From: Candidatus Nomurabacteria bacterium RIFCSPLOWO2_01_FULL_39_18
GTDB lineage: Bacteria; Patescibacteriota; Minisyncoccia; Phycocordibacterales; UBA9973
DNA length: 64,000 bases
Assembly (NCBI GenBank): GCA_001787005.1
Contig: MFUV01000004.1
Location: 911-64,910 of the forward strand
Direction of reading: 5' to 3'
Below the pieces are notes generated by a model that did not search any database, was not told the origin of the DNA, and was given only the letters and a program-made list of their open reading frames with translations. The translations under genes and the position numbers were made by a program. Below, in pieces: positions 4,757-38,521 of the stretch; positions within the stretch are counted from its first letter, which is position 1, and every line of letters begins with the position of its first letter.

Positions 4757-6196
4757 CTAGAATTTATTCCAGAGCACCTGATTGGTTACCTCGTGGTGAT
4801 AGACAATCTCGGAGGATTTGATGAGCGCCCCGAGAGCCTTGGGGCTGCGGTCAGCCGCCATCTGTTTAAATTCTGTAAATTTTTCTTGGTTAGTCCGGTT
4901 TAGAATTTTACCGACGAAATCGCTGGCCTTGAAGAGTTTGATCGCGTCATTGATGTTGTCTGGCAAGACCCGCACCCTGTCCCGCTTTTCTTTATCTTTA
5001 ACGAGAAGCTGGCCCTCCAGCCCAGTTTTTAAGATTGTAAAAAGCGCCATGTAAGGATTCGCATCCGGAGCAACAGAGCGGACTTCGATGCGGGTGGAGC
5101 GTTCATTGCCCACAGGAATACGTATCATCGAACCGCGGTCAATTGGAGAGACTTTGATCTGGTTGGGCGCTTCGAAGTGCGGGTCGAGCCGGCGATAAGC
5201 GTTCACGCTCGAATTCAAAACCAAGCAGATTTCCGAGGCATGATTTAAAATTCTCGAAATAAAATCCCAAGCAATCTCTGACAAGCCTTCCTTGCCCTTT
5301 GTATTATAAAATATATTTTTCCCGCCTTTAGAGAGTGAAATGTTCGTATGCATGCCAGAACCGTTGATGCCGATGAAGGGCTTCGGCAAGAAAGTCGCCG
5401 TAATGCCCAGATTGTTGGCGACTTGACGGCAGACCAGTTTGTAGAGCTGGATATTATCCGCGGCCCGTAGAATGTCTGTATAAGAAAAGTTCATTTCAAA
5501 CTGCGAAGGCGCCACTTCCGGATGGTCCTTTTCATTCTTGAAACCCATCGCCCTTTGCGCTTCGGCGGCGCGATCGATAAATTGGCGGAGTCGATCAAGC
5601 GGCAATGAATGATAGTACCCGCCAGTTGAAATAAATTGAAAGGAGCCTGTTTCTTCATACCTCTGTTCAGCGTTAATTCCATCAACCAGAAACCCCTCCA
5701 CTTCTGCCGAGACATATGCCGTTATTCCGCTTTTCTTCTTGAGCGCTTCTCCATAGAGCTTGAGCTGACTGCGAAAATCAGAAACGTACGGGGTGTGGTC
5801 TCTATTTAAGACATCCACAAACATAATAACTTTGCCAGGACCAAAAACATCCGACGGGAGATACCTGATGCTCCCCCAATTAATAGCGAGGCGGAGGTCA
5901 GACTCATGTTGCTGGCTAAAACCACGAATAGATGAGCCGTCAAAGGTCAGGTTATTGGCCGAATCTAGGAGAAACTTTTTATCATAATCAAGCATATGGA
6001 ATCTGCCCTCTAAATCCGTAAAACAGAGCGTCACTGCTTTAATCCTTTTTTCTTTTTGCAAATATGCGCGATATTCCCTCTCGAGCAAAGCTTCACTCAC
6101 CTTCTCTCTCCGGTCTTTAGCTCGGAGATTCATCGCCTCAAGGTCATCGTAGGAGATCTCTAAAAAATTCTTCAATTCTTTCTTTATTCCATTCAT
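4757..6196 (-). CDS. glnA: Glutamine synthetase
   Basis: 479 aa carrying the glutamine-synthetase ATP-binding signature KPFIGINGSGMHTNISL. Confidence 0.9.
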   Translation of the reverse strand: MNGIKKELKNFLEISYDDLEAMNLRAKDRREKVSEALLEREYRAYLQKEKRIKAVTLCFTDLEGRFHMLDYDKKFLLDSANNLTFDGSSIRGFSQQHESDLRLAINWGSIRYLPSDVFGPGKVIMFVDVLNRDHTPYVSDFRSQLKLYGEALKKKSGITAYVSAEVEGFLVDGINAEQRYEETGSFQFISTGGYYHSLPLDRLRQFIDRAAEAQRAMGFKNEKDHPEVAPSQFEMNFSYTDILRAADNIQLYKLVCRQVANNLGITATFLPKPFIGINGSGMHTNISLSKGGKNIFYNTKGKEGLSEIAWDFISRILNHASEICLVLNSSVNAYRRLDPHFEAPNQIKVSPIDRGSMIRIPVGNERSTRIEVRSVAPDANPYMALFTILKTGLEGQLLVKDKEKRDRVRVLPDNINDAIKLFKASDFVGKILNRTNQEKFTEFKQMAADRSPKALGALIKSSEIVYHHEVTNQVLWNKF

Positions 6197-6392: not shown

Positions 6393-6398
6393 AAAACC

Positions 6399-6425: not shown

Positions 6426-6498
6426 ATACATTGTTTACGATAAGTGCGAGAATTGCCTCACACACTCACAAGGGTAGTATAGCATACTTGCCAAAGAA

Positions 6499-6528: not shown

Positions 6529-6530
6529 GC

Positions 6531-6860: not shown

Positions 6861-6871
6861 AAAATGAGAGT

Positions 6872-6897
6872 CCCCCGCCCAAAGCGGGGGATTTTCT
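6872..6897 (+). terminator. Intrinsic terminator after rnpB
   Basis: Hairpin cccccgcccaaagcggggg followed by attttcttt. Confidence 0.7.
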
Positions 6898-6940
6898 TTA
6901 GAAAAATATTGTGTTATTATGCCTTTATAATATTATTTTT

Positions 6941-7960: not shown

Positions 7961-7964
7961 AATC

Positions 7965-8873: not shown

Positions 8874-8885
8874 AGCTCTAACCGA

Positions 8886-9416
8886 TTAGTAACCAAATTC
8901 TACCTTATCTCCTACTTTTAAATTATATTTATCGGAAAATCCAGCCACCACTTCAAGAACATACTTAGCATCCTCGTCGGGTTCATAGGTTTCTAGAAAT
9001 AAATCCGGGTGGGCGTTTTGCTTTATGTAGACTACTCGCATATCCTCGTTAATCCAGATTATGTCTATCGGGAAATACATGTTTTTCATCCAGAAAAGAT
9101 ATTTATCGGGACGATCGAAGACGAAGAGCATGCCTGTGTCCTCTGCCATACTTCTCCTACCGGAGAGCCCCTCTCCACGAGTAGCCTCGGTGAGGGCAAG
9201 ATCCACTTTAATATTCTGCCCGGCTACCTCTATGCTCTCAATCTGTGAAAATCTATACTCCGTCGAACCACGGCTAATAAATATAAAAGCGACAAGCAAA
9301 AAAACTAAAACGGTAAGAGCCGAAAAATTTTCTTTCTTCTCTGTTTTATTTATGGTCTCCATTTGTCCAACCAAAGAGTCGTCCAATTGCTTCTGCTGTT
9401 TCTCGTTTGCGTGCAA
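8886..9416 (-). CDS. DUF192 (COG1430) family protein with an N-terminal membrane anchor
   Basis: Segments GMLFVFDRP...FWMKNMYFPIDIIWI match the DUF192 pattern. Confidence 0.55.
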   Translation of the reverse strand: MHANEKQQKQLDDSLVGQMETINKTEKKENFSALTVLVFLLVAFIFISRGSTEYRFSQIESIEVAGQNIKVDLALTEATRGEGLSGRRSMAEDTGMLFVFDRPDKYLFWMKNMYFPIDIIWINEDMRVVYIKQNAHPDLFLETYEPDEDAKYVLEVVAGFSDKYNLKVGDKVEFGY

Positions 9417-10749
9417 CTTTTATTGTTCCATCTTGGGCGATTAACTTAGCTGGAGAAGATAGTAAACAATGGTGGGAGGCTAGAGCATCTTGATAAGCAC
9501 CAGAGTCAAAGATCGCCAGATACTGTGGCTCCCCTTCCTTTAGCTTAGGCATTAGTACATAACTTCCCCCAGAAGTGTATTTATCATCAGAATCACAAGA
9601 ACTTCCAGCAAGCCAAACACTTTTGAGAGTAGTCGCATTGGCATTATTAACTGGTACTATGTGCCACTTCTGGTGGATAGCCCATGTGTCTAGAAGGTCG
9701 TTCATAAAACTTCCGTCAATTACATACCAGGATTTTGCATTTGCCTTTGGAATAGGTTTTTCGGCAATTACACTGTATATAGTGACCTGAGCTGGAGCTA
9801 CGATGTATCTACCCCATTCGACAGCCAAATTTGGATGGCGAATCCTGGCTTTATCGCTCATTTTTTTAAGAAGCTTAACTATCTGCTCAGAAACTTTTTT
9901 TGCTCCATAAAACGGCTTTTTTTCATAAGGTACTCCAAAACCGCCACCAACATCAAGCGTGTCCAAGTTCGGATGATTTTTAACCAATTTTACATACAAA
10001 CCCATGGCTTCCTCAATCGGCTGCATGACACTCTTGGCGTTGTTGATTTGTGAGCCAATGTGGTAATGCAAAAGTTTTAGGTTTTTCATTTTTGGCAAAT
10101 CAAGTAGTTCTTTCGAGGAAAATCCGAAACGATCCACTTTCTTGTCCCAGTGGGTGTCTGCTTTGGTATCTAAATTGACCCTTATCCCCACCTCGCCTTT
10201 ATATTTAGCTAAACGTTCCAGCTCGTGTTCATCTTCAATGATTGGCATTATAGATAAATCCTTGAGTCGTAATTCCTCAATCAGTTTTATATATGCTTCT
10301 GTTTTGGGACCATTACAAAGAACGCGAATTTTGGAATGGAATTTTTCTCCCTCCCAAAGCTTTTTCACAATCCAGAGTTCGTTGACCGAACCAACCTCCA
10401 TATGCGCTCCTTCAGAGATTAAAGGCATCACAAATTCTTTGTTTTGATTCACTTTCAATGGATAGTGATAGAAGAATTTACCCCGATATCCCTGAATCTT
10501 CATGTAAGCTTGAAAATAATCGTGCAGATCTTCTAAACGTTCCTCGAGAATAAATGGAAAAACTATTTCCGTGGGTGAACCGTACTTTTTTACAATATCA
10601 TTAAGATTATAAATATAGTTTCCTTCTCGGATGGTCAGCTCGCCGTCCTTGGTAATGTCAAAATACTGAGTGTTCCACTCTTCCATTCCTAGCTTCCAAA
10701 ATTTCTTCCAATTCTTGCCCGGTTTTTTTGGTTTTTTTTTCTTTGGCAT
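9346..10749 (-). CDS. PLP-dependent fold-III decarboxylase, probably arginine decarboxylase
   Basis: Orn/DAP/Arg decarboxylase signatures YPLKVNQNKEFVMPLISEG and LDTLDVGGGFGV. Lys-rich N-terminus. The neighbouring agmatinase suggests an Arg to agmatine step. Confidence 0.7.
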   Translation of the reverse strand: MPKKKKPKKPGKNWKKFWKLGMEEWNTQYFDITKDGELTIREGNYIYNLNDIVKKYGSPTEIVFPFILEERLEDLHDYFQAYMKIQGYRGKFFYHYPLKVNQNKEFVMPLISEGAHMEVGSVNELWIVKKLWEGEKFHSKIRVLCNGPKTEAYIKLIEELRLKDLSIMPIIEDEHELERLAKYKGEVGIRVNLDTKADTHWDKKVDRFGFSSKELLDLPKMKNLKLLHYHIGSQINNAKSVMQPIEEAMGLYVKLVKNHPNLDTLDVGGGFGVPYEKKPFYGAKKVSEQIVKLLKKMSDKARIRHPNLAVEWGRYIVAPAQVTIYSVIAEKPIPKANAKSWYVIDGSFMNDLLDTWAIHQKWHIVPVNNANATTLKSVWLAGSSCDSDDKYTSGGSYVLMPKLKEGEPQYLAIFDSGAYQDALASHHCLLSSPAKLIAQDGTIKVARKRETAEAIGRLFGWTNGDHK

Positions 10750-12469: not shown

Positions 12470-13734
12470 TTTTTATCTTTTTTATTTTTAACTGATAATT
12501 GATTTGCTAGTTTCATCTGTAAAGAGTAAATTTCAATAAATCCTGCACTTGCATTTACATTGAGTCCATACCCCTCTGTGTTATTAAATGAAGCATGGTC
12601 TAAGGCGTACGGAGACTGTACTGTGATGACAGTGGTGTTACCTTTGAATAATCTAATTTGTACTTTTCCTGTGACTTTTTGATTAATGAAATCATTAAAA
12701 TGATTTATTGATTGCATCGCTGGGTCATACCACTGAGCTCCATAGCATAAGTAGCCCCACTTTATGTCAGAAATTTCCTTGAGTTCATTCTGCACTCTTG
12801 TGCAAACATATTTTTCTAAATTCTTATGCGCTTCAATAATTACGTGTGCCGCAGGATGTTCATAAACACCACGATTTTTCAAACCAACAATTCTATCTTC
12901 AAGTAAGTAAACAGTTCCAACTCCGTGCTTCCCCGCTAATTTATTTAGTTTAACTATCAGCTTTGCTAATGACATTTTTGTGCCGTTTAAAGCCACAGGT
13001 AGACCTTGGTTAAAATCTAGAGTTACTATTCCTGGTTCGTCTGGTGCATTTTTGGGTAAAGTATAAGTGGTCAAAAACTTTTCTTCCGGCACTATTTGGG
13101 TTGGATTTGTAATTTCCCCGCCTTCCCAAGTAATGCCCCACATGTTGTCATCGTCGCTGTAAGGAAAATCTAGAGAAGCAGGAATAGGAATATTATTTTT
13201 TTGAGCGTATTTTATTTCTGCATTTCTGTCCATGTTCCACTCTCGAACTGGCGCAAGAATTTTTATTTTTGGTTCCAAAGCTACAACATAACCTTCAATT
13301 CTAACTTGGTCATTACCCTTACCCGTGCAACCGTGAGCAATACAATCAGCGTTTTCTTTTTTAGCTATTTCTACCGCCTTCTTTGCTAATATGGCCCTAC
13401 CGATTGGTGTAGAAAGATGATAGTTACCTTGATAACAAGCATTGGCTTTAATTCCATAAGAAATATATTCTTTAGCAAATTCTTCTCTCACATCTAAAGC
13501 GATAGCTTTTATTGCTCCGAACTTTAAAGCTTTTTGTCTAATTGCTTATAAGTCATCGTGTTGCTGACCTAAGTTTAGAGTTAAAGCAATAACTTGAACT
13601 TTATATTGATCCTGAATCCACTTAAGCATCACCGAAGTATCTAAACCTCCGGAATACAAAAGTAAAACTTTTTTTATCTCCCCTTTTTGCGCTTCATAAG
13701 AAGCGACTTTTATGTAAGATGTTTTTTTATTCAT
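12466..13734 (-). pseudogene. argG: Argininosuccinate synthase interrupted by a single in-frame TAA
   Basis: The 62-aa ORF 13546..13734 ([14 protein letters not shown]...LGQQHDDL) and the 341-aa ORF 12466..13491 are in the same frame. Reading through gives ...QQHDDL*AIRQKALKFGAIKAIALDVREEF..., which is contiguous ArgG sequence. The stop is the rc of tta at 13546-13548. Confidence 0.75.
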
Positions 13735-25395: not shown

Positions 25396-25614
25396 TTATA
25401 AATCTTCAACCCTTAAACCAGTATGTTTTGCAATGCGTGATAACATTTTTGAACCGAGTTCGTCGTTGTTACTGAAAGCCCAGACATAGTTAGTATAACC
25501 CACTCTTTCGAGCACAATATGCGAAGAACTTTTATGCCTTTTTATTTCCCAGCCAATTTTAATTAGAGCCCTAAAAACTTTGCCGGCTTTACTACTTGGC
25601 CATCTTTCGCTCAT
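25396..25614 (-). CDS. HicA-family toxin (second copy)
   Basis: Segment GKVFRALIKIGWEIKRHKSSSHIVLER...LSRIAKHTGL. Confidence 0.65.
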   Translation of the reverse strand: MSERWPSSKAGKVFRALIKIGWEIKRHKSSSHIVLERVGYTNYVWAFSNNDELGSKMLSRIAKHTGLRVEDL

Positions 25615-25835
25615 GACAGTAAAAAGGCAATGCTAGAAAACCCAAGAACAGTGGCGCCTTTGTTTTCTTCCATTTCTTCTGCGAGAACTCGAAGCGCAAG
25701 TACTTCAGCATTTGCTTGAGCCTGCTCAAGAGTGGCACCATACGCAAGAACACCCGGAATTTCAAGAACTTCAGCAATCCACTTGCCATCTGTTTCTTGC
25801 TCTGTTTCTATTGTATATTTTCGTTCCTTTAACAT
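25611..25835 (-). CDS. HicB-family antitoxin (second copy)
   Basis: UPF0150-like (segment KYTIETEQETDGKWIAEVLEIPGVLAYGATLEQAQANAEVLALRV). Confidence 0.6.
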   Translation of the reverse strand: MLKERKYTIETEQETDGKWIAEVLEIPGVLAYGATLEQAQANAEVLALRVLAEEMEENKGATVLGFSSIAFLLS

Positions 25836-25863: not shown

Positions 25864-27078
25864 TTAGTCAAAATAGTTTTTTAACCTCGAGATTTTGTCA
25901 TGCTGGCGGAGTTTTTCGTGCACTTTCGCTTCAATTTGACGAATGCGTTCACGAGTAACTCCGAATTCTTCCCCTACCCGCTCGAGTGTATGCTGGATGC
26001 CGTCGAGCAATCCATAGCGCATTTCTAGAATTTTCCGCTCTTTTGGGTTAAGCTCATTTAAAACTTCGCGGATTTGGTCAGAGAGAATTCGGCGAGAAGA
26101 TTCCTGGTCGGGGCGTAAGATTTTATCATCTGGGATAAAGTTCTCCAGTGTTGATTTGTCGTCCTCATCCCCTACTGGTTGTTCGAGCGACACTGTTTCC
26201 TGTGAAATATTTTCAATGACATGAATTTTTTCTACTGGGATGCCCATTTCAGTAGCAATCTCTTCAGCTAGCGGTTCTCGCCCCAAGTCCTGGGAGAGTC
26301 GGCGGTGCGTCTGCTTGTATTTAGAAATTGTCTCCACCATGTGTACTGGTATACGAATGGTGCGAGACTGGTCAGCCAGAGCGCGAGTAATCGACTGGCG
26401 AATCCACCAAGTTGCGTAAGTAGAAAATTTATATCCCTTGGTCCAGTCGAATTTCTCAACTGCCTTGAACAATCCTAAATTTCCCTCCTGGATCAAATCG
26501 AGAAGGGTTAAGTTGGCGGACCTCCCTACATATTTTTTGGCGATTGAAACCACTAGGCGCAGGTTGGCGCGAGCGAGTAAATTCTTCGCTTCCAGATCTC
26601 CATGTTCAATACGCTTAGCAAGTTCTTTTTCCTCATTCCCATGAATCAGCGGATACTGCCCTATCTCCTTGAGATACATTTGAATGGAGTCATGCATCGA
26701 CCCTTTATTCAGATCTTTGTCACTGGGGTCAATATCGAGATTAAGCAAATTCCCTCCTTCCAATACATCAATCCCGGCAACTCCTAGCTTCTCATAAAGT
26801 TCATCTAAAAATAAAATGTTGTTTTCAATATCGGGGAAAGTTTTCAGTATCTCGTCATAAGTGATAAATCCTCTTTTACGTCCTTTTTCTATAAGCCCAA
26901 TCGAGAGATCCGCCATCCCTTGCGCTCGCTTCCCCACCTTAGACAACTTTTTTGCTCTACCTTTAGGAAGAATTTTCTTTTTAGTGATTTTTGTTTTTTT
27001 TCGCCCTTTTATTTTTTTAACTTTTTTTACTTTAAGTTTCTTTCCTTTTTTATTTATTTTTTTATTTTTTGTTTTCAT
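25864..27078 (-). CDS. rpoD: RNA polymerase sigma-70 factor
   Basis: Sigma-70 regions 2-4 (segment [14 protein letters not shown]) and a Lys-rich N-terminal extension. Confidence 0.95.
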
Positions 27079-28834
27079 GTATTTTTTTATTTATTTCTTG
27101 ACACTCTTTTAAGATTTGAGACGACCTTTCTTTATCTCCTGCCTGTTCGGCTAAATTTAATTCCCGCATCTTTCCCGCTAATTCTTCTTTGAGAGATTCT
27201 TCTTTTAAATTGCGTAACAATTCTTCTACATCTTTTTTCACATTAATATCTCCTGTCTGCGCAGGCAGGCCTTCATAAAAAACTTCAGCTTCAAAAATTA
27301 AATCATCTTTGTTTTCTTTCACCTTTTCTAAAACTTCATTCCCCGCAACGTTTAAAATCTGCCCAATCTCTTTTAAAATACCGTCGGTATCAAGGATTTG
27401 TTCTTTAAGCGTCCTCTGCCAAAGGATAATGCCCAGTAGCTTGCGCAGAATGTAGTCTTTTCTAAATTTTACCACTTCATTTTTTAAGACTTGTTCCCCA
27501 CCCGACTCGATGACTTCCTCCGTTTGGATGGGAATTTTTCTCAAGTCATCTTCTAGGGCACTCCCTGGGATAGATGATAAATCGCTTATTTTCTTTAAAA
27601 AATGGCTCTTTTCTATCGAGCTTTCTAACGCATCCACAAAAGGCAGTATTACGCTCTTTATTTCTCGTCCAACTTTGCGCATGTCTCCCTTTGAATCTCT
27701 AAGTACTCTCGCTAAGACAAACTCTATTATGTGCTTTGAATTTTTAATTACTTCACGCCACGCGTCTGGACCCCCGCTGATTTTATCCGAGATCAAATCT
27801 GCTGGATCAACACCCTCGGGCATTTCTGCCACTTTCACATCCATGCCTAGTGATAGTGCAATTCTACCAGCTCTGTTCGCAGCATTGAAGCCTGCGCGAT
27901 CTGCATCAAACGCCAGCACAATATTGGAAGAAAGACGGCGAACAAGCCCTAAATTAGTCACAATTTTTTCTTTTGAAATTGTAGAGTCTGCTAGGGCTGT
28001 GCCGGAAGTCGCGATGGTGTTCTTATATCCCGCCTGATGCGACAAAACTAAGTCCATCTGGCCTTCAACTAAAATAGAGAAATTATTCTTGCGAATTGAG
28101 TCTTTCGCCCTATCTAGTCCGTAGAGTACGGCGGATTTGTTGAATATGGGTGTTTCGGGGGAGTTTAAATACTTTGCTCCCTTCCCATCATCTATGAATA
28201 ATCTTCCAGAAAAAGCTATGATGCGCCCGCTTGAATCAGCGATAGGAAACATGATACGCCCGCGAAATCTATCATACATTGCTCTGCTCCTGTCTTCTGG
28301 TTTTTTAGCCAACCCTGCTTTTTCTATTTCCACATCAGAGAAACCCTTTGCTTTTAGATGGTCATAAAGCCTGCGCCAGTCGAGAATGGCGTATCCAATT
28401 CTAAAATCTTTGATGCTTCTCTCTTCCAACCCTCGAGTCCTTAAATATGCCAATACTTCGGCGTTTTCCTTTAAATTATTTTCGAAATATGTAGTTGCTT
28501 CCTCCATTATTCTATATAACTTTTCTTTTTCATCTTCTACCTTCGGATTATATTGCTCGAGCTTAACGCCTGCCTTCTCCGCCAGAAGTTTCAGTGCTCC
28601 TCTGAAATCAAGCCCTTCAAATTCTTCCACAAAAGTAAAGATGTCACCACCGGCCCCGCAACCAAAGCAGTAATAACTCCCTCGGCCAGGCGAAATGAAA
28701 AAGCTGGGTGTTTTTTCATTATGAAACGGGCATTTCGCCTTCAGGTTTGCCCCCGCTTTTTCTAATTTTATGTAAGAAGAGACTACTTCTTCGATTGAAA
28801 GTCTTTCTTTAATTTGTTGAACGGGAGAGTTCAT
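27062..28834 (-). CDS. dnaG: DNA primase
   Basis: CHC2 zinc finger [11 protein letters not shown] and a TOPRIM domain. Overlaps rpoD. Confidence 0.95.
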
Positions 28835-28836
28835 AA

Positions 28837-29901
28837 TTATTTTGTAAATTTGAAGGTGGAAATAATATCTTTTTCTAATTTTGATACCTCTAGATCTTCG
28901 CCAGTAATAATATCTATGACGTAAAAATGACCATTCTTTAAAGCAACAATCTGAAGGCCAGCAACTTCAGGAAAATTAAAACCTCCAATATATGCTTCTT
29001 CGCCACCAAGTATGGTTTTTTCTGGAGCCATTAAATTTTTTGTTAAATCTTTAAGGTTGTTTGCATTAGCACCGTCTATAGAAATAGTGTGCACATCTTT
29101 TATTGAAAGAAAATAAGAAACAGTCAAATCAACCTTTGATGACGAATCTAGGGTTTCATAATTTGTACCAATGGGATTAGTAATCATAAAACCATTCTTA
29201 GTGACTAAAGTTAGAAGTTGTGTGGGATATTTTATTTCAAACCCATATTGAGCATTTGTATACATTTCCCAATTTGAAGTATCCGTTTGTGTTGTCGGTT
29301 CAATAAATTTAAACGTGGAAAGAATTTGATTAACTTCGTTTTTGTATTTCTCGTTCGACAATATTACAAAAGGCTCTTTCGGATAATTAACACAAATATA
29401 ATTATCTGCTATCCTTGGACTACTTTCTATTACAGTTACAACCTCCAGAGACTTGTGCCCTAAAAAATACGAATGAGTGATGGATTCTGGTCCTCCACTT
29501 TCGCCGAAAGTCCATTCTCCACAAGGTCTTTCGGGCCAATTGTAGTCATCAGAAACTATTCCTTTGGGGAAAAAGGTTATTTTAAATATTTCCATATTCG
29601 AAAAAGGGACACTGGAATCAGGTCTAATAAATCTTATTGATCCATCATCAGAAGGTTGGGTTCCACTTTCTCCGACATAAGGTGGGTTCTCTTGAAAATA
29701 TAAATCTTCGGGATACTTAAATTCGAACCCATATAGCTCGTTCGTATAGGTTTTCCAATCCTCGGGGATCGGAGTTGAAACATCTGAAGTTTGTTGATTG
29801 TTGGGCTTCTTAGATACAGCGAAATATCCGCCGATAGCCACTAGAACAACAAGCACTCCAATTAAAACCAGACTTGCAAAACCTTTTTGATTATTTTTCA
29901 T
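28837..29901 (-). CDS. Membrane-anchored or secreted protein with two tandem ~150-aa repeats
   Basis: Each repeat runs from W-TYTN-YGFE[FI]KYP to STFKF. The 209-aa protein at 34701..35330 is a paralogue with the same start MKNNQK and end STFKFTK. Confidence 0.5.
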   Translation of the reverse strand: MKNNQKGFASLVLIGVLVVLVAIGGYFAVSKKPNNQQTSDVSTPIPEDWKTYTNELYGFEFKYPEDLYFQENPPYVGESGTQPSDDGSIRFIRPDSSVPFSNMEIFKITFFPKGIVSDDYNWPERPCGEWTFGESGGPESITHSYFLGHKSLEVVTVIESSPRIADNYICVNYPKEPFVILSNEKYKNEVNQILSTFKFIEPTTQTDTSNWEMYTNAQYGFEIKYPTQLLTLVTKNGFMITNPIGTNYETLDSSSKVDLTVSYFLSIKDVHTISIDGANANNLKDLTKNLMAPEKTILGGEEAYIGGFNFPEVAGLQIVALKNGHFYVIDIITGEDLEVSKLEKDIISTFKFTK

Positions 29902-30052
29902 TTTGTTTTTAGACTAGTTAATAATAAGCTTATAAATTAACAATGCTTGCGACTGCTGATAATTGACATTTAGCTACCCCCTTGCTACACTTTACCCGTA
30001 AATGCTTTCCTTGTCGAAAGCTCCGAGAAACCCCCGCAAGGGGGTTTCGTTT

Positions 30053-30436
30053 TTATACAATCTTCCTTATTTTTGATTTTACCTCTTTTAACTCTTCGTT
30101 TTCTACTTTACCAATAATTCTCAGTAGTCTTTTTGCGTCAAAAAGTCTAACTTGTGACAAGATCGCAGTTGAACCAGAAAAGGAATTTAGTTTGTGATAA
30201 TATTTTCCCTCCTTCTCTTCATTTAATGTTAAAGGAATTCCTAAAAATATATTATTGTTAAATTTTCTGACTATTAAAATGGGTCTTTCAAAACTGGAGT
30301 GCTTCCCATCTTCTTCATCCCCTATGTTTTTACCGATAGATGCAAACCATATGTCTCCTTTGTGAAAGAAAATATTTGATTTCTTGGTTGATAAATCTTT
30401 TTTTAATTTATTCCAATCATCATATTCTTTTTCCAT
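30053..30436 (-). CDS. PemK/MazF-like toxin, solitary
   Basis: Segment KGDIWFASIGKNIGDEEDGKHSSFERPILIVRK. No recognisable antitoxin. Sits immediately after the rpoC stop. Confidence 0.55.
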   Translation of the reverse strand: MEKEYDDWNKLKKDLSTKKSNIFFHKGDIWFASIGKNIGDEEDGKHSSFERPILIVRKFNNNIFLGIPLTLNEEKEGKYYHKLNSFSGSTAILSQVRLFDAKRLLRIIGKVENEELKEVKSKIRKIV

Positions 30437-30449
30437 ATTTTTTGAATTT

Positions 30450-33400
30450 TTATTTCTCTAGCACTACCTTGTTCTTGAACCCCGTCCCAGCTGGAATTAA
30501 TCGCCCGATTATGACATTTTCTTTAAGCCCGCGGAGAGAATCCACCCCGCCCTTGATGGCGTTTTCGATGAGCACGCGATTAGTATTTTGGAATGATGCG
30601 GCCGAGAGCCAGCTTTTAGTGCGAAGTGATACTTCGGTAATACCAAGCACGACGGTCTCTGCCTTAGCTTCTTTGCCATTTATTTTCTCGACTCGGGAGT
30701 TTTCTTCCATGAAAGTAACATTCTCAACAATGTCACCGATAGAGAAGTTAGTCTCACCTGCATCTTTTATTTTTCTGCGAGAAAACATCTGACGGACGAT
30801 TATCTCTGTGTGTTTTCTGGAAATCGAGGCGCTTTGAAGTTCATAAACTTTATTTATTTCTGCGATGATGTATTCTTCAACCAGCTCTTTGCTTCCCAAT
30901 TTAAACATTGAGGCTATGTCTGCTGATCCGTCAGTCAAAAGTTGGCCTTTCTTGATTTTTTCTCCCGCTTTTACTATCGGCATTCGGCGAAAGGCAACTA
31001 TGTATTCAATTTCATTTGGCTTACCATCAAGCTTGGTATCTGATAGCACTTTCATAATTTTTTCCTTTCCATTCTTATCTTTAATTTCTATAACCTCACC
31101 ATCTGTTTCAGAAATAATTGCCGGATTTTTTGGAATCCTTCTTTCGAATATTTCTTCAATACGCGGCAATCCTGTGGTTATGTCAGTACCAGCAACACCA
31201 CCAGCATGGAATGTACGAAGCGTCAGCTGGGTGCCCGGCTCTCCGATGGCCTGAGCTGCGATGATACCTACGGCCTCACCCTGTTCGACAAGGTGATTCC
31301 TGCCTAAATCAAGCCCATAACACATAACGCAGAGGCCGTGAACTGTGCGGCATGTAAGCGGCGAGCGGACAAATACTTCCGTAAAACCGGCTCCTTCAAT
31401 ATTGTATGCTTCCTCTTTAGTGACTAGAAATCCCCTCTTGTAAGCTACTTTGCCATTCTTGTCTTTCAGATCTCCCGCTAGCACTCGTCCGCGGATATTC
31501 TTGGAAAGTGGAATTTCGATTCCAGAAATATTTTCTCTCGTAACTATTTTCCCTTCCTTGGTGCCACAATCCTCTTCTGTGATAACTATATCTTGCGCAA
31601 CATCAACCAATCTTCGGGTTAAATATCCGGCCTTAGCAGTGTTGAGCGCGGTATCTGACGCACCCTTTCTAGCACCATGAGTAATGACGAAATATTCAAT
31701 CGGAGAAAGACCTTCCTGATAACAGGGAATGATTGGAAACTCCAAAGTATTACCCTGGTTGTTTTGGATAAGTCCTATCATGCCTGTCATTTGTATAAGT
31801 GACGACATTGTGCCCCTGGCCTTGGAAGTAAATAAATCATAGGTAGAACCACTTTTATCAAGAGTCTTGGGCAGGATTTTCTCTAAATCCTTTTTTGTGT
31901 GCGTCCAAATTTCAATAATTTTTTGGTATTTTTCTTCCAGAGACAACAGACCCTCGCTCCATTGGGAGATTATTTCTTCTTCTAGTTTTTTACCTTGCGC
32001 TATAATCTTTGGCTTCTCGGCAGGTACGGAAACATTGTCCAGACCCCAAGTAGTGCCGGAAACTGTAGAATATTTAAAGCCAAATGCTTTAATTTTATCT
32101 AGAATTGCCGGAGTATTTTCTACACCGCCATGAATTATAAGTTCATCTAGTAGTGAGGACAACCTTTCTTGAATCATTTCGTCGTTTATATAAGAAAAGT
32201 CATTGGGTAGGATGCTGTTAAAGAGAAGCTTCCCGACGGAAGTGTCGAACATTCCTCCATTAAACTTTTTATATTTATTAGTATCTGTTGCTAGAACTTT
32301 TATTTTAGCTCGGAGAGACACTATTCCGTAGTCATAGGCAGTAATGGCAGCATTCGGGCTAGAAAAATACTTCCCTTCACCCATCTCTCCATCAACATTT
32401 TTCGTCATCCAATAAGATCCCAGCACCATATCCATGCGAGGATGCACTATTAAATCTCCATTTTGCGGTTTGAGCAGATTTTTATTCGCGGCCATTAATT
32501 CTTTCGCTTCGGATTGAGCCTCTTCAAGCAGAGGAACATACACGGCCATTTGGTCTCCGTCGAAATCAGCATTAAAAGCCTGACAAACAAGAGGGTGAAC
32601 CTGAATGGCATTGCCCTCAATCAAAATAGGATTAAAAGCTTGAATACCGAGACGGTGCAGTGTAGGCGCGCGATTTAGAAGAACATATTTGCCTTCGATG
32701 ACTTTCTCCAACATTGCCCAGACTTCCCCCCCGCGTTCTTCTATGAGTTTATTTGCTCCGCGGATATTGAATGCGAGTTCTGCTTGTAAAATTTTAGAAA
32801 TTACAAAAGGCCTGAAAAGCTCGAGCGCCATATGTTTCGGCAATCCGCATTGATTGAGCTTGAGTTCTGGTCCGACAACGATAACAGATCGCCCTGAATA
32901 ATCCACTCGTTTTCCAAGCAGATTTTGGCGGAAAAGACCCTGCTTGGATTTTAGATTGTCTGATAGAGATTTTAGAGGACGCTTTTGAGATTGGCTCATG
33001 GCCGCAGAATCATTCTGCTTGGCTATTGAATTGTCGATTAGCGCGTCTACCGCTTCTTGAATAATTCTTTTTTCATTACGCAAGATTACATCCGGAGCAT
33101 TAATTTCCTTCAGTTTCTTTAAGCGATTATTTCTATTTATAACCCGGCGATAAAGATCGTTCAAATCGCTCGTTGCGTGCCTTCCGCCATCGAGCGCCAC
33201 CATCGGACGAAGCACTGGCGGAATGACGGGAATAATGGTCAAAAACATCCATTCTGGCCGAATTCCGGCATAAGTCATGGCGCGGATTAAAGAAAGCCTT
33301 TTTTGCAACTTTTCTTTTTCAACCACACTTGCTTTCTCAAGCATCTTTTCGGTATGAATTTTCAACTTGTTCAAATCGAGATTTTTAAAAATGGAGTAGA

Positions 33401-34052
33401 TAGCTTCAGCGCCAATGTTGGCCTCGAAACAAGTCCCGTATTTCAAAGAATAATGATGAAAAGATATTTCATTTAAAACTTTCCCTTCGTAAATTTCTCC
33501 AATCTCTTTTTTTGTGACAGAAAGCAAAGTTTTCAATTTTTCTCGAGTTTCATCATCAGCCACATTTTTTAATTTGGCTTTATACTCTTTATCCAGATTT
33601 TGCACGACTGTGGCTTTCTCTTCTTCGTGGACTTTGGTAATTATGTATCCAGCGAAGTATATTACCTTTTCGAGGTCGGTGACTGAAATATTAAGTAAAA
33701 TACTCATCCTGGATGGTACACCACGCAAAAACCAAATGTGAGACACGGGGGTGGAGAGCTCGATATGCCCCATTCTCTCACGCCTGACGATAGATCTGGT
33801 AACTTCTACCCCGCATTTCTCGCAGATTATATCCTTGTAGCGAATTCGGCGATATTTCCCACAATAACATTCGTAATCTTTCTCCGGTCCGAATATTTTC
33901 TCATCAAAGAGGCCTCCGCGCTCAGATCTGCCGGTACGATAGTTTATCGTCTCGGGCTTGGTGACTTCTCCATAAGACCATTCTTTTATTTGAACAGGCG
34001 AAGCAAGCCTTAGCGCAATTTGATCAAATTCAGTTGTGTTTAAAGTTTTCAT
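30450..34052 (-). CDS. rpoC: DNA-directed RNA polymerase beta' subunit
   Basis: 1200 aa containing NADFDGDQM and the other beta' signatures. Confidence 0.97.
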
Positions 34053-34057
34053 GTTTT

Positions 34058-34315
34058 TTATTTATATAAATTGCTGTGGGTGTCGATGAATAAAAATTTA
34101 ATTGCTTCTCCTTGAACTTCATACACAGCTCTCAAGTCCCCTGTTATATTTATACTTCTGTATCCGAGATATTCTCCATGAAGCGGGTGATTGCTCAATT
34201 CTGGTGACAAAGGATTAGCTATGAATATTTTTAACCGTTCGTTAAACTTTGATTTAATTTTTGGGAGTAATTTTTCATACTGCTTGAGAAAACGTTTATG
34301 ATAATCGATTCGCAT
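34058..34315 (-). CDS. YafQ/RelE-family toxin
   Basis: Segment HPLHGEYLGYRSINITGDLRAVYEV. Confidence 0.65.
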   Translation of the reverse strand: MRIDYHKRFLKQYEKLLPKIKSKFNERLKIFIANPLSPELSNHPLHGEYLGYRSINITGDLRAVYEVQGEAIKFLFIDTHSNLYK

Positions 34316-34327
34316 ATATGATTCATA

Positions 34328-34600
34328 CTAGGAATTAAGACTTTTGATCATATCTTCAGCCGTATAGAAGGGTCCGATCATATTCCTTCCTTCACGCGCA
34401 TCTTTAGAAAGTTTTGCAAGAAGTTTCTGTGTTTTTTTATTTAGAACTGGTTCATCAATAAAAGTCACTTGACGTTCATTAATAAACTGCTTAATATTCT
34501 GATTGATAACCGCATTCAAAGACACTCCAAGGGTATGAGCCACTTCATGGGCTTTTTCTTTTAACCTCTTATCGATTTTTATGCTTAACATTGTTTGCAT
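34328..34600 (-). CDS. DinJ/RelB-family antitoxin
   Basis: N-terminus SIKIDKRLKEKAHEVAHTLGVSLNAVINQ is ribbon-helix-helix-like. Confidence 0.6.
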   Translation of the reverse strand: MQTMLSIKIDKRLKEKAHEVAHTLGVSLNAVINQNIKQFINERQVTFIDEPVLNKKTQKLLAKLSKDAREGRNMIGPFYTAEDMIKSLNS

Positions 34601-34700
34601 GGTATTTTATTTTATATTTTTATTAATATCTAAAGTATATACTTTTGATTGATAATGTCAAGACTCATATTTTATGTATTGTTTGTTTAAAGTTTTCATA

Positions 34701-35330
34701 TTATTTCGTAAATTTGAAAGTGGAAAAAATCTTCTGAAAAACCAAACTATTTTGAGGAAAAGTAATTCTAAATACATTTCTTTTTTTGTCTGCAAGAAAA
34801 ACTACTTTTGTTCTATAGTATATTGGTAATTCATACCCCACATACTCACCATATCCGTGATCAACAATAAATTCGTAAGCCAAATTTTCATTATACTTGA
34901 CTTCTTTGATGTCCGAAGTTGCATAACCCATATTTTTATTAAAATTGTAACGAGATTGCGCAATGCTTAACAAGGTTTCTTCTTGTGTCATTGGAAAACT
35001 GCTAGTCCAAATATTTATCTCTTCATTATAACCAAGTTCTTTAGTATTTGAGTCAAGATTATATTTTAATCTAGTTTGTGAATCTACCGGAATGCTTAGA
35101 TTATGCTCATCATCTCTAAGTGTCACATTGCTAGTTAAATAAATGTCGGAATTAAGATCGGGATGATACAACTCGAAATCTTCAGGATACTTTATTTCAT
35201 ATTGATACATGTTATTTTCAAAGGTTTTCCACCTCTTTGTCTGGTCAGTTTTACTAACGACCAAAAAAACAATGATTGCAAATAACGCAACGAGTACTAT
35301 ACCTGCAAAACTTTTTTGATTATTTTTCAT
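34701..35330 (-). CDS. Membrane-anchored or secreted single-domain paralogue of 28837..29901
   Basis: Starts MKNNQKSFAGIVL..., contains YQYEIKYPEDF and ends STFKFTK. Confidence 0.5.
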   Translation of the reverse strand: MKNNQKSFAGIVLVALFAIIVFLVVSKTDQTKRWKTFENNMYQYEIKYPEDFELYHPDLNSDIYLTSNVTLRDDEHNLSIPVDSQTRLKYNLDSNTKELGYNEEINIWTSSFPMTQEETLLSIAQSRYNFNKNMGYATSDIKEVKYNENLAYEFIVDHGYGEYVGYELPIYYRTKVVFLADKKRNVFRITFPQNSLVFQKIFSTFKFTK

Positions 35331-35335
35331 ATTTT

Positions 35336-38300
35336 TTAATTTTCTTTATCGCCCTTTTTCTGTAAATTAACATCAAGGGCAAGACCTCGCAGATAGTTCA
35401 AGAGCACATTGAACGATGCCGGAGAATTTGGCGGTTTGATTATTTCATTTTTGATAATGGAGTCAAAGGTAGCAGAACGTCCCAATATATCATCGGACTT
35501 TACCGTAAGCATCTCACGAAGCGTATAAGCTGCGCCATATCCCTCGAGCGCCCAGACTTCCATTTCTCCGAATCTCTGTCCTCCGCCTTGAGCCTTTCCG
35601 CCAAGAGGTTGTTGAGTAATCAAGGAGTACGGTCCGATCGAGCGCATGTGGATCTTGTCCTCCACCATGTGATGGAGCTTCAGCATGTACAAATATCCGA
35701 CGGCCACATCTTGCTCAAAAGCTTCTCCAGTACGTCCGTCAAAGAGCTTCAGTTTGCCGTTTTCTGGCAATCCTGCTTTTGTTAATTCTTCTTTTATTTC
35801 TTTTTGCGTTGCCCCTAAGAATGGAGGAACTATTGCCTGATAACCAAGGCTGTTGGCTGCCATCCCAAGATGCATTTCAAAGATTTGTCCTAAGTTCATA
35901 CGGGAAGGAACACCAAGAGGAGAAAGTATGATATCAATCGGTGTGCCGTCCTCCGTATAGGGCATGTCTTCTTCCGGAAGAATCATCGAGATAACGCCCT
36001 TATTCCCGTGTCGTCCGGAAAGTTTGTCTCCAACTGAAATATTTCTTATTTGAGCAACTTCAATCACAATCTTTTTGATGATTCCAGCCTCGAGCGAATG
36101 TCCAAGATCACGAGAAAAGATTTTGATTCCGATAATACGCCCTCGCTTGCCGTGTTCCATGCGAAGCGAAGTGTCTTTCACATCACGTGCTTTTTCGGCA
36201 AAGATCGAGCGAAGAAGCCTCTCTTCCGGAGTAAGTTCAGTTTCACCCTTAGGGGTAATTTTACCAACCAAAATATCATTTTCTCTAACCTCTGCTCCGA
36301 TACGGACAATGCCGTCTTCGTCTAAGTCTTTCAATTTGAGCTCTCCGACATTTGGTATGTCACGGGTAGTGATTTCAGGCCCAAGTTTAGTATCGCGAAC
36401 TACGCAAGTAAATTCTTCAACATACACGCTTGTGAACTTGCTCCTCTTTACCAGACGTTCAGAAACAATTATCGCGTCTTCGTAAGTTGAGCCAGACCAA
36501 GACAAAAAGGCGACAAAAATATTCTGTCCTATGGAAATTTGTCCATTCATAGTGCTACTAGTATCTGCGAGCACTGCCCCCTTTTTCACTCTATCACCCA
36601 CGTTCACAAGCGGTCGTTGGTGGAAGACAGCAAAGTTATTGTTTCTCATAAAATTAACGAGAGAGTATGTCTTTTCACTCTTGCCTTTTATGACTATCTT
36701 TTTCGCATCCAAATAGGAAACAACGCCCTCTTCCCCCGCGATAACCAGTCTGCCAGAATCTCTGGACGCTAGTTCTTCTATGCCAGTAGCCACTAGTGGC
36801 ATTTCGGGGATGACGCAAGGGACAGCTTGTTTCTGCATGTTCGAGCCCATCAGCGCGCGGTTTGCATTATTATGCTCCAAGAAAGGAATCATGGAAGTTG
36901 CCATAGAAAAAGCTTGATTGGTGGCAACGTCGATAAAATCAACTTCGTTTGCGGGTATGGTGCCCGGCTCGGTTTTGATTCTAGCTTCAACTTTCTCCTC
37001 CGTGATCTTCCCATTTTCGTCATAAGGGATTCCGGCATGCGCAATGTTATATTTCTCTTCTTCAAGCGCGTTTAAATAGACTATCTCGTGAGTAATTTTT
37101 CCATTCTTCACTTTTATGTAGGGAGTTTCAATAATTCCAAATTCATTGATTCTAGCGTAAGTGGAAAGATGTAGAATCAGTCCGATGTTGGGCCCCTCAG
37201 GGGTATGAATCGGGCAAACTCGACCGTAGTGAGAAGGGTGCACATCACGAACCTCGAGCCCCGCACGCTCTCTGGTGAGGCCACCAGGCCCGAGCGCAGA
37301 TAGGAGACGGATATGTTCAGTTTCAGCCAGAACGTTTTCCTGGTTCATAAACTGTGAAAGCTGGTTGGTAGTGAAAAATTCTTTAATTCGAGCTTGGAGC
37401 GGACGCTGATTTATGATAGCGATGGGCATCGCCGTATTGACATCAATGATGGACATTCGATCTTGAATGTTTCTTTTAATCTGCATCATGCCGGTACGCA
37501 CTTTCTGCTGAAGTATTTCTCCGACAAATCGCACGCGTCTCTGTCCGAGATGGTCTATGTCATCAGCTTGGGCTCCTGGAGTATTATTCAAGGAAATAAT
37601 ATGCATTATGACAGTCACTAGATCCTCCTTGGAGATAGTGCGGCGCAATAGAGCTTCTTCGTCCATTGGTTTCTCAAAACGTTGGTTAAACCTGAATCGT
37701 CCCACCGGAGAAAGATCGTATCTCTCCGCGGTAAATAAAGAATTGATAAATTCTTTAGCATTGTCAGCTGTGGCCATGTCCCCATCTCGAAGACGTTTGT
37801 AGATATCAATGTAAGAATCATTTGCATTTTTGGCTGTATCCTTAGCAAGACATGCTTTTATGGCTTCTTCGGCGCCGGGGACTCCCTCGCCCTTTAGAGA
37901 GAAAGCCTTTAATATTGCTTCATCGTTTTCATAACCCATAACCCGAAGGAGGGCCGTGACTCCGAACTTTCTTTTCTTGTCTATCCTCACATAAATAGCG
38001 CCGTCAGCTTCTGATTCTATTTCAATCCAGACTCCGCGAGCTGGAATGATTTTCGCGCCGAAATACCTGTTGCCCTTGCTCTCTGACTCGGTAAAGAAAA
38101 CTCCGAAGGATCTAGCGAGCTGTGGCACAATGACACGCTCCACGCCATTTATGATAAAAGTACCGTGCGAGGTCATCAGAGGAAGCTCAGACATGAAAAT
38201 TTCCTGCTCTTTGACAGTGCCTAGAATTTTATTGGTCAACTTCACGCGAATCTTTAAAAGCCCTTGGTATGAGAGTTTGTTTATTTTGGTGTCATTCTCG

Positions 38301-38521
38301 TCTTGCTTTGATTCAGAGAGCGAGAAGGATAGAAATTCAAGCTGAAACTTTTTCCCGGAATAGTCCGAGATTGGGGAGAATTCTTTGAAAACTTCGCCAA
38401 TGCCTTTTTCTACTAGCCACGAAAAGGACTTGAGTTGCGCCTCGATTAAATTGGGAAATTCTACGAGAGGCTTTTTGTACCTGGAAAAGTACTTTTTAGG
38501 AAGTTTTGATTGAGCCTGCAT
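35336..38521 (-). CDS. rpoB: DNA-directed RNA polymerase beta subunit
   Basis: 1061 aa with the beta-subunit signatures. Confidence 0.97.
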   Translation of the reverse strand: MQAQSKLPKKYFSRYKKPLVEFPNLIEAQLKSFSWLVEKGIGEVFKEFSPISDYSGKKFQLEFLSFSLSESKQDENDTKINKLSYQGLLKIRVKLTNKILGTVKEQEIFMSELPLMTSHGTFIINGVERVIVPQLARSFGVFFTESESKGNRYFGAKIIPARGVWIEIESEADGAIYVRIDKKRKFGVTALLRVMGYENDEAILKAFSLKGEGVPGAEEAIKACLAKDTAKNANDSYIDIYKRLRDGDMATADNAKEFINSLFTAERYDLSPVGRFRFNQRFEKPMDEEALLRRTISKEDLVTVIMHIISLNNTPGAQADDIDHLGQRRVRFVGEILQQKVRTGMMQIKRNIQDRMSIIDVNTAMPIAIINQRPLQARIKEFFTTNQLSQFMNQENVLAETEHIRLLSALGPGGLTRERAGLEVRDVHPSHYGRVCPIHTPEGPNIGLILHLSTYARINEFGIIETPYIKVKNGKITHEIVYLNALEEEKYNIAHAGIPYDENGKITEEKVEARIKTEPGTIPANEVDFIDVATNQAFSMATSMIPFLEHNNANRALMGSNMQKQAVPCVIPEMPLVATGIEELASRDSGRLVIAGEEGVVSYLDAKKIVIKGKSEKTYSLVNFMRNNNFAVFHQRPLVNVGDRVKKGAVLADTSSTMNGQISIGQNIFVAFLSWSGSTYEDAIIVSERLVKRSKFTSVYVEEFTCVVRDTKLGPEITTRDIPNVGELKLKDLDEDGIVRIGAEVRENDILVGKITPKGETELTPEERLLRSIFAEKARDVKDTSLRMEHGKRGRIIGIKIFSRDLGHSLEAGIIKKIVIEVAQIRNISVGDKLSGRHGNKGVISMILPEEDMPYTEDGTPIDIILSPLGVPSRMNLGQIFEMHLGMAANSLGYQAIVPPFLGATQKEIKEELTKAGLPENGKLKLFDGRTGEAFEQDVAVGYLYMLKLHHMVEDKIHMRSIGPYSLITQQPLGGKAQGGGQRFGEMEVWALEGYGAAYTLREMLTVKSDDILGRSATFDSIIKNEIIKPPNSPASFNVLLNYLRGLALDVNLQKKGDKEN

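Follow-up and report, generated by a model that had tools for sequence, protein, structure and literature searches.

In a 64,000-nucleotide stretch of genomic DNA from Candidatus Nomurabacteria bacterium RIFCSPLOWO2_01_FULL_39_18, an uncultured groundwater organism (contig MFUV01000004.1, positions 911 to 64,910 of the forward strand; hereafter the window), the RNA polymerase genes rpoB and rpoC are split by three genes, two of which form a relBE-type toxin-antitoxin (TA) pair bordered by an insertion scar. Downstream of rpoC lies a PemK/MazF-family toxin gene that is paired with a convergent small RNA (sRNA) gene. The explanation that we favour, with a probability of about 0.7, is that the rpoB-rpoC-dnaG-rpoD gene string has been invaded by small accessory cassettes at exact gene junctions and that PemK is accompanied by an RNA partner.

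On the minus strand of the window, the genes are ordered rpoB, a gene encoding a 209-aa PsbP-like protein, a relB/dinJ-like antitoxin gene, a relE/yafQ-like toxin gene, rpoC and pemK (Table 1). The gaps are short: 5 nt between rpoB and the 209-aa open reading frame (ORF), 100 nt between this ORF and relB, 12 nt between relB and relE, 5 nt between the relE stop codon and the rpoC ATG, and 13 nt between the rpoC stop codon and pemK. A preliminary description of this DNA had reported three closely spaced minus-strand genes between rpoB and rpoC, including a dinJ-yafQ-like pair, and a MazF-like gene abutting rpoC. These assignments were borne out at the coordinates given: the RelE/YafQ-like and PemK (PF02452) proteins pass curated cutoffs, and the RelB/DinJ-like protein falls just below them. 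As in the canonical bacterial rpoBC operon, rpoB and rpoC are both intact and lie on one strand in the usual order. Unlike in that operon, they are separated by 1286 nt comprising three genes and a predicted internal promoter, and in this clade rpoC is followed by dnaG-rpoD and not by ribosomal protein genes. A scan for terminator-like sites on the minus strand between rpoB and rpoC found none. In several metagenomes, 23 contigs encode the 209-aa protein and 14 encode an identical RpoC; the arrangement is the same in all of them, and the region 29800-35400 (5.6 kb) was 99.9-100% identical in six. Because many independent contigs carry the split rpoBC arrangement with identical sequence, mis-assembly is excluded.

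To place this arrangement among relatives, 80 species-level loci of related Patescibacteria (GTDB) were gathered with the RpoC N-terminus; individual loci are cited by L numbers. A gap of >250 nt was counted as an insert, and gap data were obtained from 79 species for the rpoB-rpoC junction and from 72 for rpoC-dnaG. The order rpoB-rpoC-dnaG-rpoD held across all 80 loci. The median rpoB-rpoC gap was 30 nt, and the gap was <110 nt in 76 of the 79 species. Inserts were found between rpoB and rpoC in 3 of 79 species, between rpoC and dnaG in 7 of 72, and between dnaG and rpoD in none. The three rpoB-rpoC inserts comprised a PemK homologue with a small membrane ORF (L009), a PsbP-like gene with a Bro/DinD-like gene (L024), and a NYN-like gene (L069). 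Across the junctions of the relatives, the inserts contained PemK, PsbP-like, NYN-like and Bro/DinD-like genes, and L038 also carried a homologous relBE. None of the five extra genes is present in the closest relative, L007, whose rpoB and rpoC share 86% DNA identity with those of the window. L007 is colinear with the window apart from two blocks specific to the latter: 35323-34064, containing the 209-aa gene and relBE, and 30477-28844, containing pemK, the RNA gene and a gene encoding a 354-aa protein. The arrangement is therefore not common to relatives, the opposite of a case in which relatives share the gene order and the proteins lack TA motifs. The location had been called unusual for an addiction module, and both the comparison with 79 related species and the scar described below agree with this. 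The scope of the preliminary description was too narrow: the whole rpoB-rpoC-dnaG-rpoD string is a recurrent landing place, and hicAB follows rpoD. On these comparisons, the junctions of the string appear to be recurrently invaded by accessory cassettes in this clade.

The 85-aa RelE/YafQ-like toxin of the cassette ahead of rpoC matched PF15738 YafQ_toxin with 39.4 bits (cutoff 30) and TIGR02385 RelE_StbE with 44.7 bits (cutoff 27.9). Its closest solved structures are those of Helicobacter pylori HP0894 and Escherichia coli YafQ (PDB, E of 1e-5 to 2e-4); a sequence search with the 90-aa antitoxin returned no solved homologue. Upstream of the pair lies a predicted promoter, TTGACA-16-TATACT (−35 at 34661..34656; −10 at 34639..34634), which agrees with the σ70-like consensus at 11 of 12 positions and was the best match in a 14-kb scan. 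An imperfect palindrome at 34628-34649, a putative RelB operator, overlaps it. With a small antitoxin gene directly upstream of the gene for a toxin of ~85 aa with the RelE/YafQ fold, and with its own predicted promoter overlapped by a palindrome, the pair resembles the DinJ-YafQ/RelBE type II systems of E. coli and of the HP0894 type. It differs from them in its position at the rpoC start codon within the RNA polymerase operon, in the accompanying 16-nt duplication of rpoC, and in that its antitoxin scores just under the curated cutoffs. By analogy with such systems, the toxin would be a ribosome-dependent mRNase that cuts translated mRNA, and the cassette would be a classical autoregulated type II pair.

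The borders of the relBE cassette are marked by a direct repeat (34037-34059 and 34684-34706) of 23 nt and 91% identity, with a spacing of 647 bp and an exact core of 16 nt. This core corresponds to the first 16 nt of rpoC (ATGAAAACTTTAAACA, 34037-34052; a ATGAAACTTTAAACA-type 16-mer), which are repeated exactly at 34684-34699. The upstream copy lies 1 nt past the stop codon of the 209-aa gene and forms the left border of the cassette. In L007, the same rpoC start follows the rpoB stop codon. The duplicated rpoC start that brackets relBE is an insertion scar. Because the relic start lies 1 nt after the stop codon of the 209-aa gene, this gene must formerly have ended 1 nt before the rpoC ATG. 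From the position of the duplicate it follows that the surface-protein gene arrived first and relBE second.

The relic rpoC start also opens a 13-codon ORF (34658..34699, minus strand) encoding MKTLNKQYIKYES, the stop codon of which lies within the −35 box of relBE; the ORF is positioned for translational coupling to the 209-aa gene. In L006, a 1-bp deletion in the stop codon of relE (2554-2838; window position 34060) extends the toxin ORF to 94 aa, such that it overlaps the rpoC start. Observed in one metagenome contig, this deletion is either a real variant or an assembly error. The relBE cassette of L038, located just ahead of dnaG, is homologous to that of the window, with amino acid identities of 76% in the antitoxin and 61% in the toxin. 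It has the same promoter, palindrome and right border, 'TATAAATAAAAA' followed by ATG.

The inserted genes may be co-transcribed with the polymerase genes, and it is plausible that rpoC can be read from both the rpoB promoter and the TA promoter. Because relBE has its own predicted promoter and operator, and because a convergent promoter and hairpin follow pemK, transcription of the locus is likely more complex than simple read-through.

The gene that follows rpoC encodes a 127-aa protein whose match to PF02452 spans positions 2-108 of the 109 in the profile. According to Foldseek, the top matches of its AlphaFold model (predicted local distance difference test of 80; predicted template modelling score of 0.74) were MazF-mt1, Bacillus subtilis MazF and Staphylococcus aureus MazF, with a probability of 1.0. 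The protein possesses an extra N-terminal helix that is absent from canonical MazFs; this helix is subfamily-specific, basic and aromatic, and carries a conserved DxWNxxKK motif. Residues R51, P52 and T70 and an SQxRL motif were invariant in 31 homologues. In B. subtilis YdcE/MazF, the aligned positions are RP (for R51-P52) and IT(A/S)Q (for T70), and we take the R51 and T70 positions to be catalytic, as assigned in published work on MazF. Given the invariance of the Arg-Pro and Thr positions corresponding to the MazF active site, PemK is probably an active endoribonuclease and would be toxic if unopposed.

No gene for a MazE/PemI protein antitoxin was found next to pemK, and no small ORF was shared among 85 homologous loci. 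The ORFs upstream of the PemK homologues in these loci were mutually unrelated housekeeping genes, namely rpoC and those for HPF, TsaE, YraN, ribonuclease (RNase) H and others. Antisense ORFs inside pemK were considered as an antitoxin and dismissed; they start upstream of the predicted transcription start. The toxin gene had been described as solitary, which did not hold: a conserved convergent sRNA gene (29963-30056, plus strand) is paired with it. A search for an antitoxin partner, as the preliminary description had proposed, thus yielded an RNA candidate, but 3' of the toxin gene and not in the interval 30437-30449.

The sRNA gene has a predicted promoter with a −35 box (TTGACA, 29963-29968) and a −10 box (TACACT, 29986-29991) separated by a 17-nt spacer. 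The predicted RNA comprises a 5' GUAAAUG, hairpin 1 (30004-30021), a UCCGAG linker, a GC-rich terminator hairpin 2 (30027-30048) and a U-run that overlaps the pemK stop codon (30053-30055). It folds with a minimum free energy of −24.3 kcal/mol (z = −4.6). When six related loci were aligned, a −35 TTGACAT and a −10 TAnACT were invariant after the PemK homologues, and the stems varied by compensation.

We then gathered 80 metagenomic loci containing PemK homologues of 40-81% identity. The strict promoter pattern occurred 41-76 nt from the PemK stop codon in 51 of 85 genes, compared with 0.5 expected from its frequency in 3.7 Mb. MAFFT alignment of all variants was poor, and a covariance model, R1, was built from 15 well-aligned Patescibacteria sequences. 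The model matched the window sRNA with an E of 5e-18. Across the PemK loci it yielded 56 matches with E ≤ 0.003, and the rpoC loci (1.37 Mb) gave only four with E < 1e-3, all adjoining PemK genes. Overall, 59 of 60 strong matches adjoined the PemK stop codon, mostly with an overlap of 3 nt. Compensatory changes were present in 12 of 13 base pairs, and 98.9% of cells were paired in the alignment, which was fitted to the model; none of 500 shuffles reached the observed values, and slid controls paired at 49-76%. The RNA was present behind every PemK homologue of at least 53% identity. Behind more distant homologues, variants missed by R1 were recognized by eye (5' ACAAAUUGG, two hairpins, sometimes without a U-run). 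About 19 of the 80 metagenomic PemK modules lie directly after rpoC and ~60 occur in many unrelated contexts. Because most of these loci are not next to rpoC, PemK and the RNA constitute a two-part module that moves as a unit. Rfam contained no family for the sRNA, either in a search of the whole window at the gathering threshold or in one of 29850-30500 at E ≤ 10, in which the best score, 20 bits, was at chance level.

A second R1 match in the window (6387-6444, minus strand; 28 bits) was rejected as a family member: it consists mostly of the terminator hairpin and no PemK gene is nearby. It lies within an sRNA-like element (6387-6500, minus strand) with a promoter-like TTGCAA-17-TATACT, ~80 nt and then a GC-rich terminator with a U-run, located between a glutamine-synthetase-like gene (4757..6196) and the RNase P RNA gene (6533-6861, plus strand). 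The latter scored 102 bits against an Rfam gathering score of 100, and is therefore a divergent version of this RNA.

The same PemK subfamily, including the DxWNxxKK motif, is encoded on plasmids of Campylobacter, Helicobacter and Nitratiruptor and on the Campylobacter jejuni prophage CJIE4, with full-length identities of 37-44%. A convergent −10 box is present at each of these Campylobacterota loci, together with a multi-hairpin RNA extending to the toxin stop codon. On plasmid pVir of C. jejuni 81-176, the PemK gene (CJJ81176_pVir0047, protein WP_011117588.1; 30634-31038, plus strand) encodes a protein with 39% full-length identity to that of the window. An sRNA of pVir, CJpv3, was detected by differential RNA sequencing and verified by Northern blot (31119 to 31043, minus strand, 77 nt, between pVir0047 and pVir0048; Dugar et al. 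2013, PMC3656092, Table S12). CJpv3 starts 7 nt after GATATAAT, ends 5 nt from the PemK stop codon at 31038 and has a predicted fold of three hairpins (z = −3.9). In Rfam, no family matched the CJpv3 region of C. jejuni. PMC10470494 and PMC7826846, both citing Shen et al. 2016 (Mol Microbiol 101:909), state that pVir of 81-176 encodes a type I system in which the antisense RNA CjrA is the antitoxin. The pVir locus resembles that of the window in the PemK subfamily with its DxWNxxKK helix, in having no protein antitoxin, and in the convergent promoter and short multi-hairpin RNA ending at the toxin stop codon. By contrast, it belongs to another phylum and resides on a plasmid, whereas the window locus is in a chromosomal RNA polymerase operon. 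Moreover, CJpv3 has three hairpins in 77 nt as opposed to two in ~59 nt, and the two RNAs cannot be aligned.

Type I RNA antitoxins can overlap the 3' end of the toxin mRNA, as in the TxpA/RatA and BsrG/SR4 systems of B. subtilis. The window RNA is similarly convergent and structured, and is complementary to pemK transcripts that read past the stop codon. However, the window toxin is a soluble 127-aa RNase of the MazF fold and not a small hydrophobic peptide, and sequence conservation extends to the single-stranded motifs of the RNA, although cis-antisense pairing alone would not require it. In type III ToxIN systems, an endoribonuclease with a Kid/MazF-like fold is neutralized by a small structured RNA (reviewed in PMC8860590). 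The window likewise has a toxin of an endoribonuclease family and a small structured RNA with no protein partner, but its RNA gene is single-copy, downstream and convergent, with neither tandem repeats nor the same-strand upstream arrangement.

There is, in our view, a somewhat better than even chance that the convergent RNA is the antitoxin of PemK, replacing the absent MazE protein, and this chance is split roughly evenly between two modes of action. In the type I-like mode, the RNA would pair with the complementary 3' part of the pemK message, as reported for CjrA. Because a pemK transcript that extends past the stop codon is fully complementary to the RNA, such control would be almost automatic if both RNAs are made. 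In the type III-like mode, the RNA would bind PemK directly; both modes might also operate. The conserved single-stranded motifs (GUAAAUG and UCCGAG) and the basic, aromatic helix of the toxin are unneeded for cis-antisense pairing and therefore hint at direct recognition. Inspection by eye of the pemK coding and 5' regions revealed no site complementary to the conserved motifs of the sRNA for pairing in trans.

Taken together, the history of the locus would be as follows. A membrane-anchored PsbP-like gene landed between rpoB and rpoC, ending 1 nt before the rpoC ATG, and a self-contained type II relBE cassette of ~630 bp would later have inserted at the rpoC start codon, duplicating 16 nt of the rpoC 5' end and bringing its own σ70 promoter and operator. 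Downstream of rpoC, the gene for the PemK/MazF endoribonuclease would have come to lie with its convergent ~59-nt, two-hairpin RNA, and a second PsbP-like gene and the hicAB pair would complete the set.

Several observations weigh against parts of this explanation. The 90-aa antitoxin scored 38.3 bits against TIGR02384 RelB_DinJ (cutoff of 45.65) and 21.8 bits against PF04221 RelB (cutoff of 22.4), and the promoters and terminators throughout are consensus matches only. The L038 relBE cassette has no duplicated dnaG start. A target-site duplication is thereby ruled out as a general mark of relBE, and no transposition mechanism can be claimed. As to the PemK module, window and L022 have colinear rpoC-pemK-RNA blocks with 77% DNA identity, and rpoC on its own has diverged to the same degree; unlike relBE, the module may have been resident for a long time and repeatedly lost, rather than having arrived recently. 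The narrow model R1 found the RNA behind only 53 of 86 or 55 of 85 PemK genes, the others being recognized by a relaxed pattern or by eye. Finally, we infer, and do no more than infer, that CjrA is CJpv3 and that the toxin CjpT is the PemK-like protein, and in pVir of strain IA3902 the same slot contains a YafQ-type pair and no PemK.

The terminator-like nature of hairpin 2, the absence of the U-run from the RNA of one subgroup, and the position of the element between two essential gene blocks, a sensible spot for an insulator, would suit an alternative in which PemK is an orphan. The protein would then be an RNase that functions without an antitoxin, having been domesticated or attenuated, or one neutralized by a partner encoded elsewhere, and the convergent element would act only as a bidirectional terminator, as an insulator, or as an unrelated RNA that regulates read-through from rpoC into dnaG-rpoD. 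We consider this unlikely: the RNA accompanies PemK in ~60 loci unrelated to rpoC or dnaG, as well as on plasmids and prophages of another phylum; 59 of the 60 strong covariance-model matches lie next to a PemK stop codon; a terminator would need neither hairpin 1 nor the single-stranded 5' AAAUG, yet both are conserved or covary; and the catalytic-site residues of PemK are invariant.

It is less probable still that the cassettes have been co-opted as regulators, the relBE promoter tuning rpoC and the toxins cutting the long rpoB-rpoC-dnaG-rpoD message under stress. Their exact placement at start codons with spacings of 1-5 nt, the lack of a minus-strand terminator-like site between rpoB and rpoC, the recurrence of related cassettes at junctions of the same operon in several species, and the stability of the arrangement in all 14-23 sampled contigs are what such regulators might show. 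However, only 3 of 79 and 7 of 72 species carry inserts, a patchy distribution, and the closest relative has none of those in the window, hicAB is present or absent among near-identical strains, and the contents of the inserts differ between species. Because the distribution is patchy and the contents variable, the inserts are better explained as mobile accessory genes than as a conserved regulatory design. It is scarcely credible that the small ORFs arose by chance or encode lineage-specific structural proteins, or that the arrangement is a mis-assembly. Short ORFs do arise easily in an AT-rich genome, the antitoxin falls under the curated cutoffs and the 209-aa protein has no direct family match; yet RelE/YafQ and PemK pass theirs, the PemK model has the MazF fold, the gene order is not common to relatives, a homologous relBE cassette exists elsewhere, and many independent contigs carry the identical sequence. 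A bolder extension is possible, if doubtful: that DxWNxxKK-type PemK proteins with a convergent sRNA form a widespread, unrecognized class of MazF TA system, found on chromosomes, plasmids and prophages of Patescibacteria and Campylobacterota and absent from Rfam, in which direct binding by an RNA takes the place of MazE, a hybrid of types I and III. The rpoBC-dnaG-rpoD junctions in Nomurabacteria would then also be a preferred integration site, a safe harbour where cassettes are always transcribed and protected from deletion.

The 209-aa protein between rpoB and relBE has an N-terminal transmembrane anchor and one extracytoplasmic PsbP-like domain of the PsbP_2 type. It had no direct Pfam match, and among 5.8 billion proteins searched with a word index its only match was to itself. 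An exhaustive phmmer search identified 155 weak or distant relatives, several of which match PF18933 PsbP_2 over the cutoff. We read it as a fast-evolving membrane-anchored extracytoplasmic protein. Its earlier designation as a membrane-anchored paralogue proved correct: its N-terminal ~52 residues are 40% identical to those of the 354-aa protein encoded ahead of dnaG, and both proteins end in STFKFTK. Members of this family start with MKNNQKGFA..., followed by a transmembrane helix and then W-x-T-Y-x-N-x-x-Y-G-F-E-F-K-Y-P, and terminate in STFKFTK. The stop codon of the 354-aa gene lies 2 nt ahead of the dnaG ATG. Family members also occur at operon junctions in L009, L021, L024, L027 and L038, and members in other species likewise end 1-2 nt ahead of the next core gene.

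The 5' ends of the two paralogous genes of the window (29867-29908 and 35296-35337) share 86% DNA identity over 42 nt, including the region just upstream of the ATG. Their 3' ends (28837 and 34701) both carry TTCAAATTTACrAAATAAT, and the middles are very divergent. The conserved ends could be recombination handles. In the interval separating the RNA promoter from the following gene (window 29902-29960), a further motif, ATTTATAAGCTT, is conserved, with equivalents in L022, L009, L038 and even L017, which has no PsbP-like gene. This motif may serve as an outward promoter from which transcription of dnaG-rpoD starts again. In L022, a decayed 5' fragment of a PsbP-like gene (MNQKGLVNLVLIL...; 13440-13725) lies between the PemK-RNA module and dnaG, a case of insert decay at the same junction.

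Other features of the string and its relatives were noted. A hicB-like/hicA pair is directly 3' of rpoD in the window and is missing from the strain contig L002 (19467-19517), which is 99.98% identical to the window across the rpoBC region; within a single population, this TA cassette is thus polymorphic for presence or absence. Proteins judged by eye to resemble NYN/LabA-like nuclease domains, and related to each other, are encoded between rpoB and rpoC in L069 (9278-9778) and between rpoC and dnaG in L025 (13740-14246), apparently a further recurrent passenger of the operon junctions. In L024, a stretch of 46 aa is perfectly duplicated in tandem within rpoC (6419-10165); this is either an assembly artefact or a genuine insertion into a conserved region. 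PADLOC defence models had no matches among the five accessory proteins of the window.

Table 1. Features of the rpoB-rpoC-dnaG-rpoD region, with coordinates in the window and the evidence for each.
Feature	Position	Strand	Evidence
rpoB (RNA polymerase beta subunit, 1061 aa)	35336..38521	−	NCBIfam NF001616 rpoB equivalog, 1432 bits; six Rpb2 Pfam domains
Gene for 209-aa membrane-anchored PsbP-like protein (inserted gene 1)	34701..35330	−	Distant PsbP_2 relatives; paralogue of ORF 28837..29901
Scar repeat, upstream copy of rpoC 5' end	34684..34699	−	Direct repeat D7
Predicted relBE promoter and overlapping putative RelB operator palindrome	34628..34661	−	Promoter scan; inverted repeat I17
relB/dinJ-like antitoxin gene, 90 aa	34328..34600	−	TIGR02384, E 1.1e-9
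relE/yafQ-like toxin gene, 85 aa	34058..34315	−	PF15738 and TIGR02385 over cutoff
rpoC (RNA polymerase beta' subunit, 1200 aa)	30450..34052	−	TIGR02386, 1459 bits
pemK/mazF-family toxin gene, 127 aa	30053..30436	−	PF02452, 42.7 bits (cutoff 23.1)
Candidate RNA antitoxin, ~59 nt	29998..30056	+	Covariance model R1, 70.6 bits
Predicted sRNA promoter	29963..29991	+	Scan match, 10/12 with TG extension
Gene for 354-aa membrane-anchored protein, two PsbP-like repeats	28837..29901	−	PF18933 PsbP_2, 35.8 bits (cutoff 27)
dnaG	27062..28834	−	Pfam families
rpoD	25864..27078	−	Pfam families
hicB-like gene	25611..25835	−	Weak HicB-like match
hicA	25396..25614	−	PF07927 HicA, 34.3 bits (cutoff 27)

The components of the locus are of known kinds: a RelBE type II pair, and a toxin of the MazF family whose RNA partner apparently has a counterpart already studied in C. 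jejuni. The new findings are that a scar-bearing TA cassette splits rpoB from rpoC, that junctions of this operon are invaded recurrently in Nomurabacteria, and the occurrence in two phyla of an 'orphan' PemK subfamily with a covarying convergent RNA that is absent from Rfam. A full-text search of the literature returned nothing on MazF or PemK with a convergent sRNA in bacteria of the candidate phyla radiation (CPR), nor on TA cassettes between rpoB and rpoC.

The adjacency of rpoB and rpoC is among the most conserved gene orders in bacteria, and the window presents a clean, scar-bearing TA cassette at the rpoC start codon. It would be an example of selfish cassettes colonizing the few tolerated sites in tiny, gene-dense CPR genomes. 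We speculate that an essential, constantly transcribed operon in a very small genome may offer a safe harbour, in which few deletions of a cassette are harmless and expression is guaranteed. More than 80 loci tie the PemK subfamily to a covarying convergent sRNA, which would account for an apparently orphan MazF, and the PemK-linked RNA is expressed in the one cultured organism for which there are data (CJpv3 of C. jejuni pVir). The proposal that this RNA is an antitoxin is directly testable, and the covariance model could seed an RNA family. For annotation pipelines, these data are a caution against labelling such PemK genes as partnerless type II toxins.

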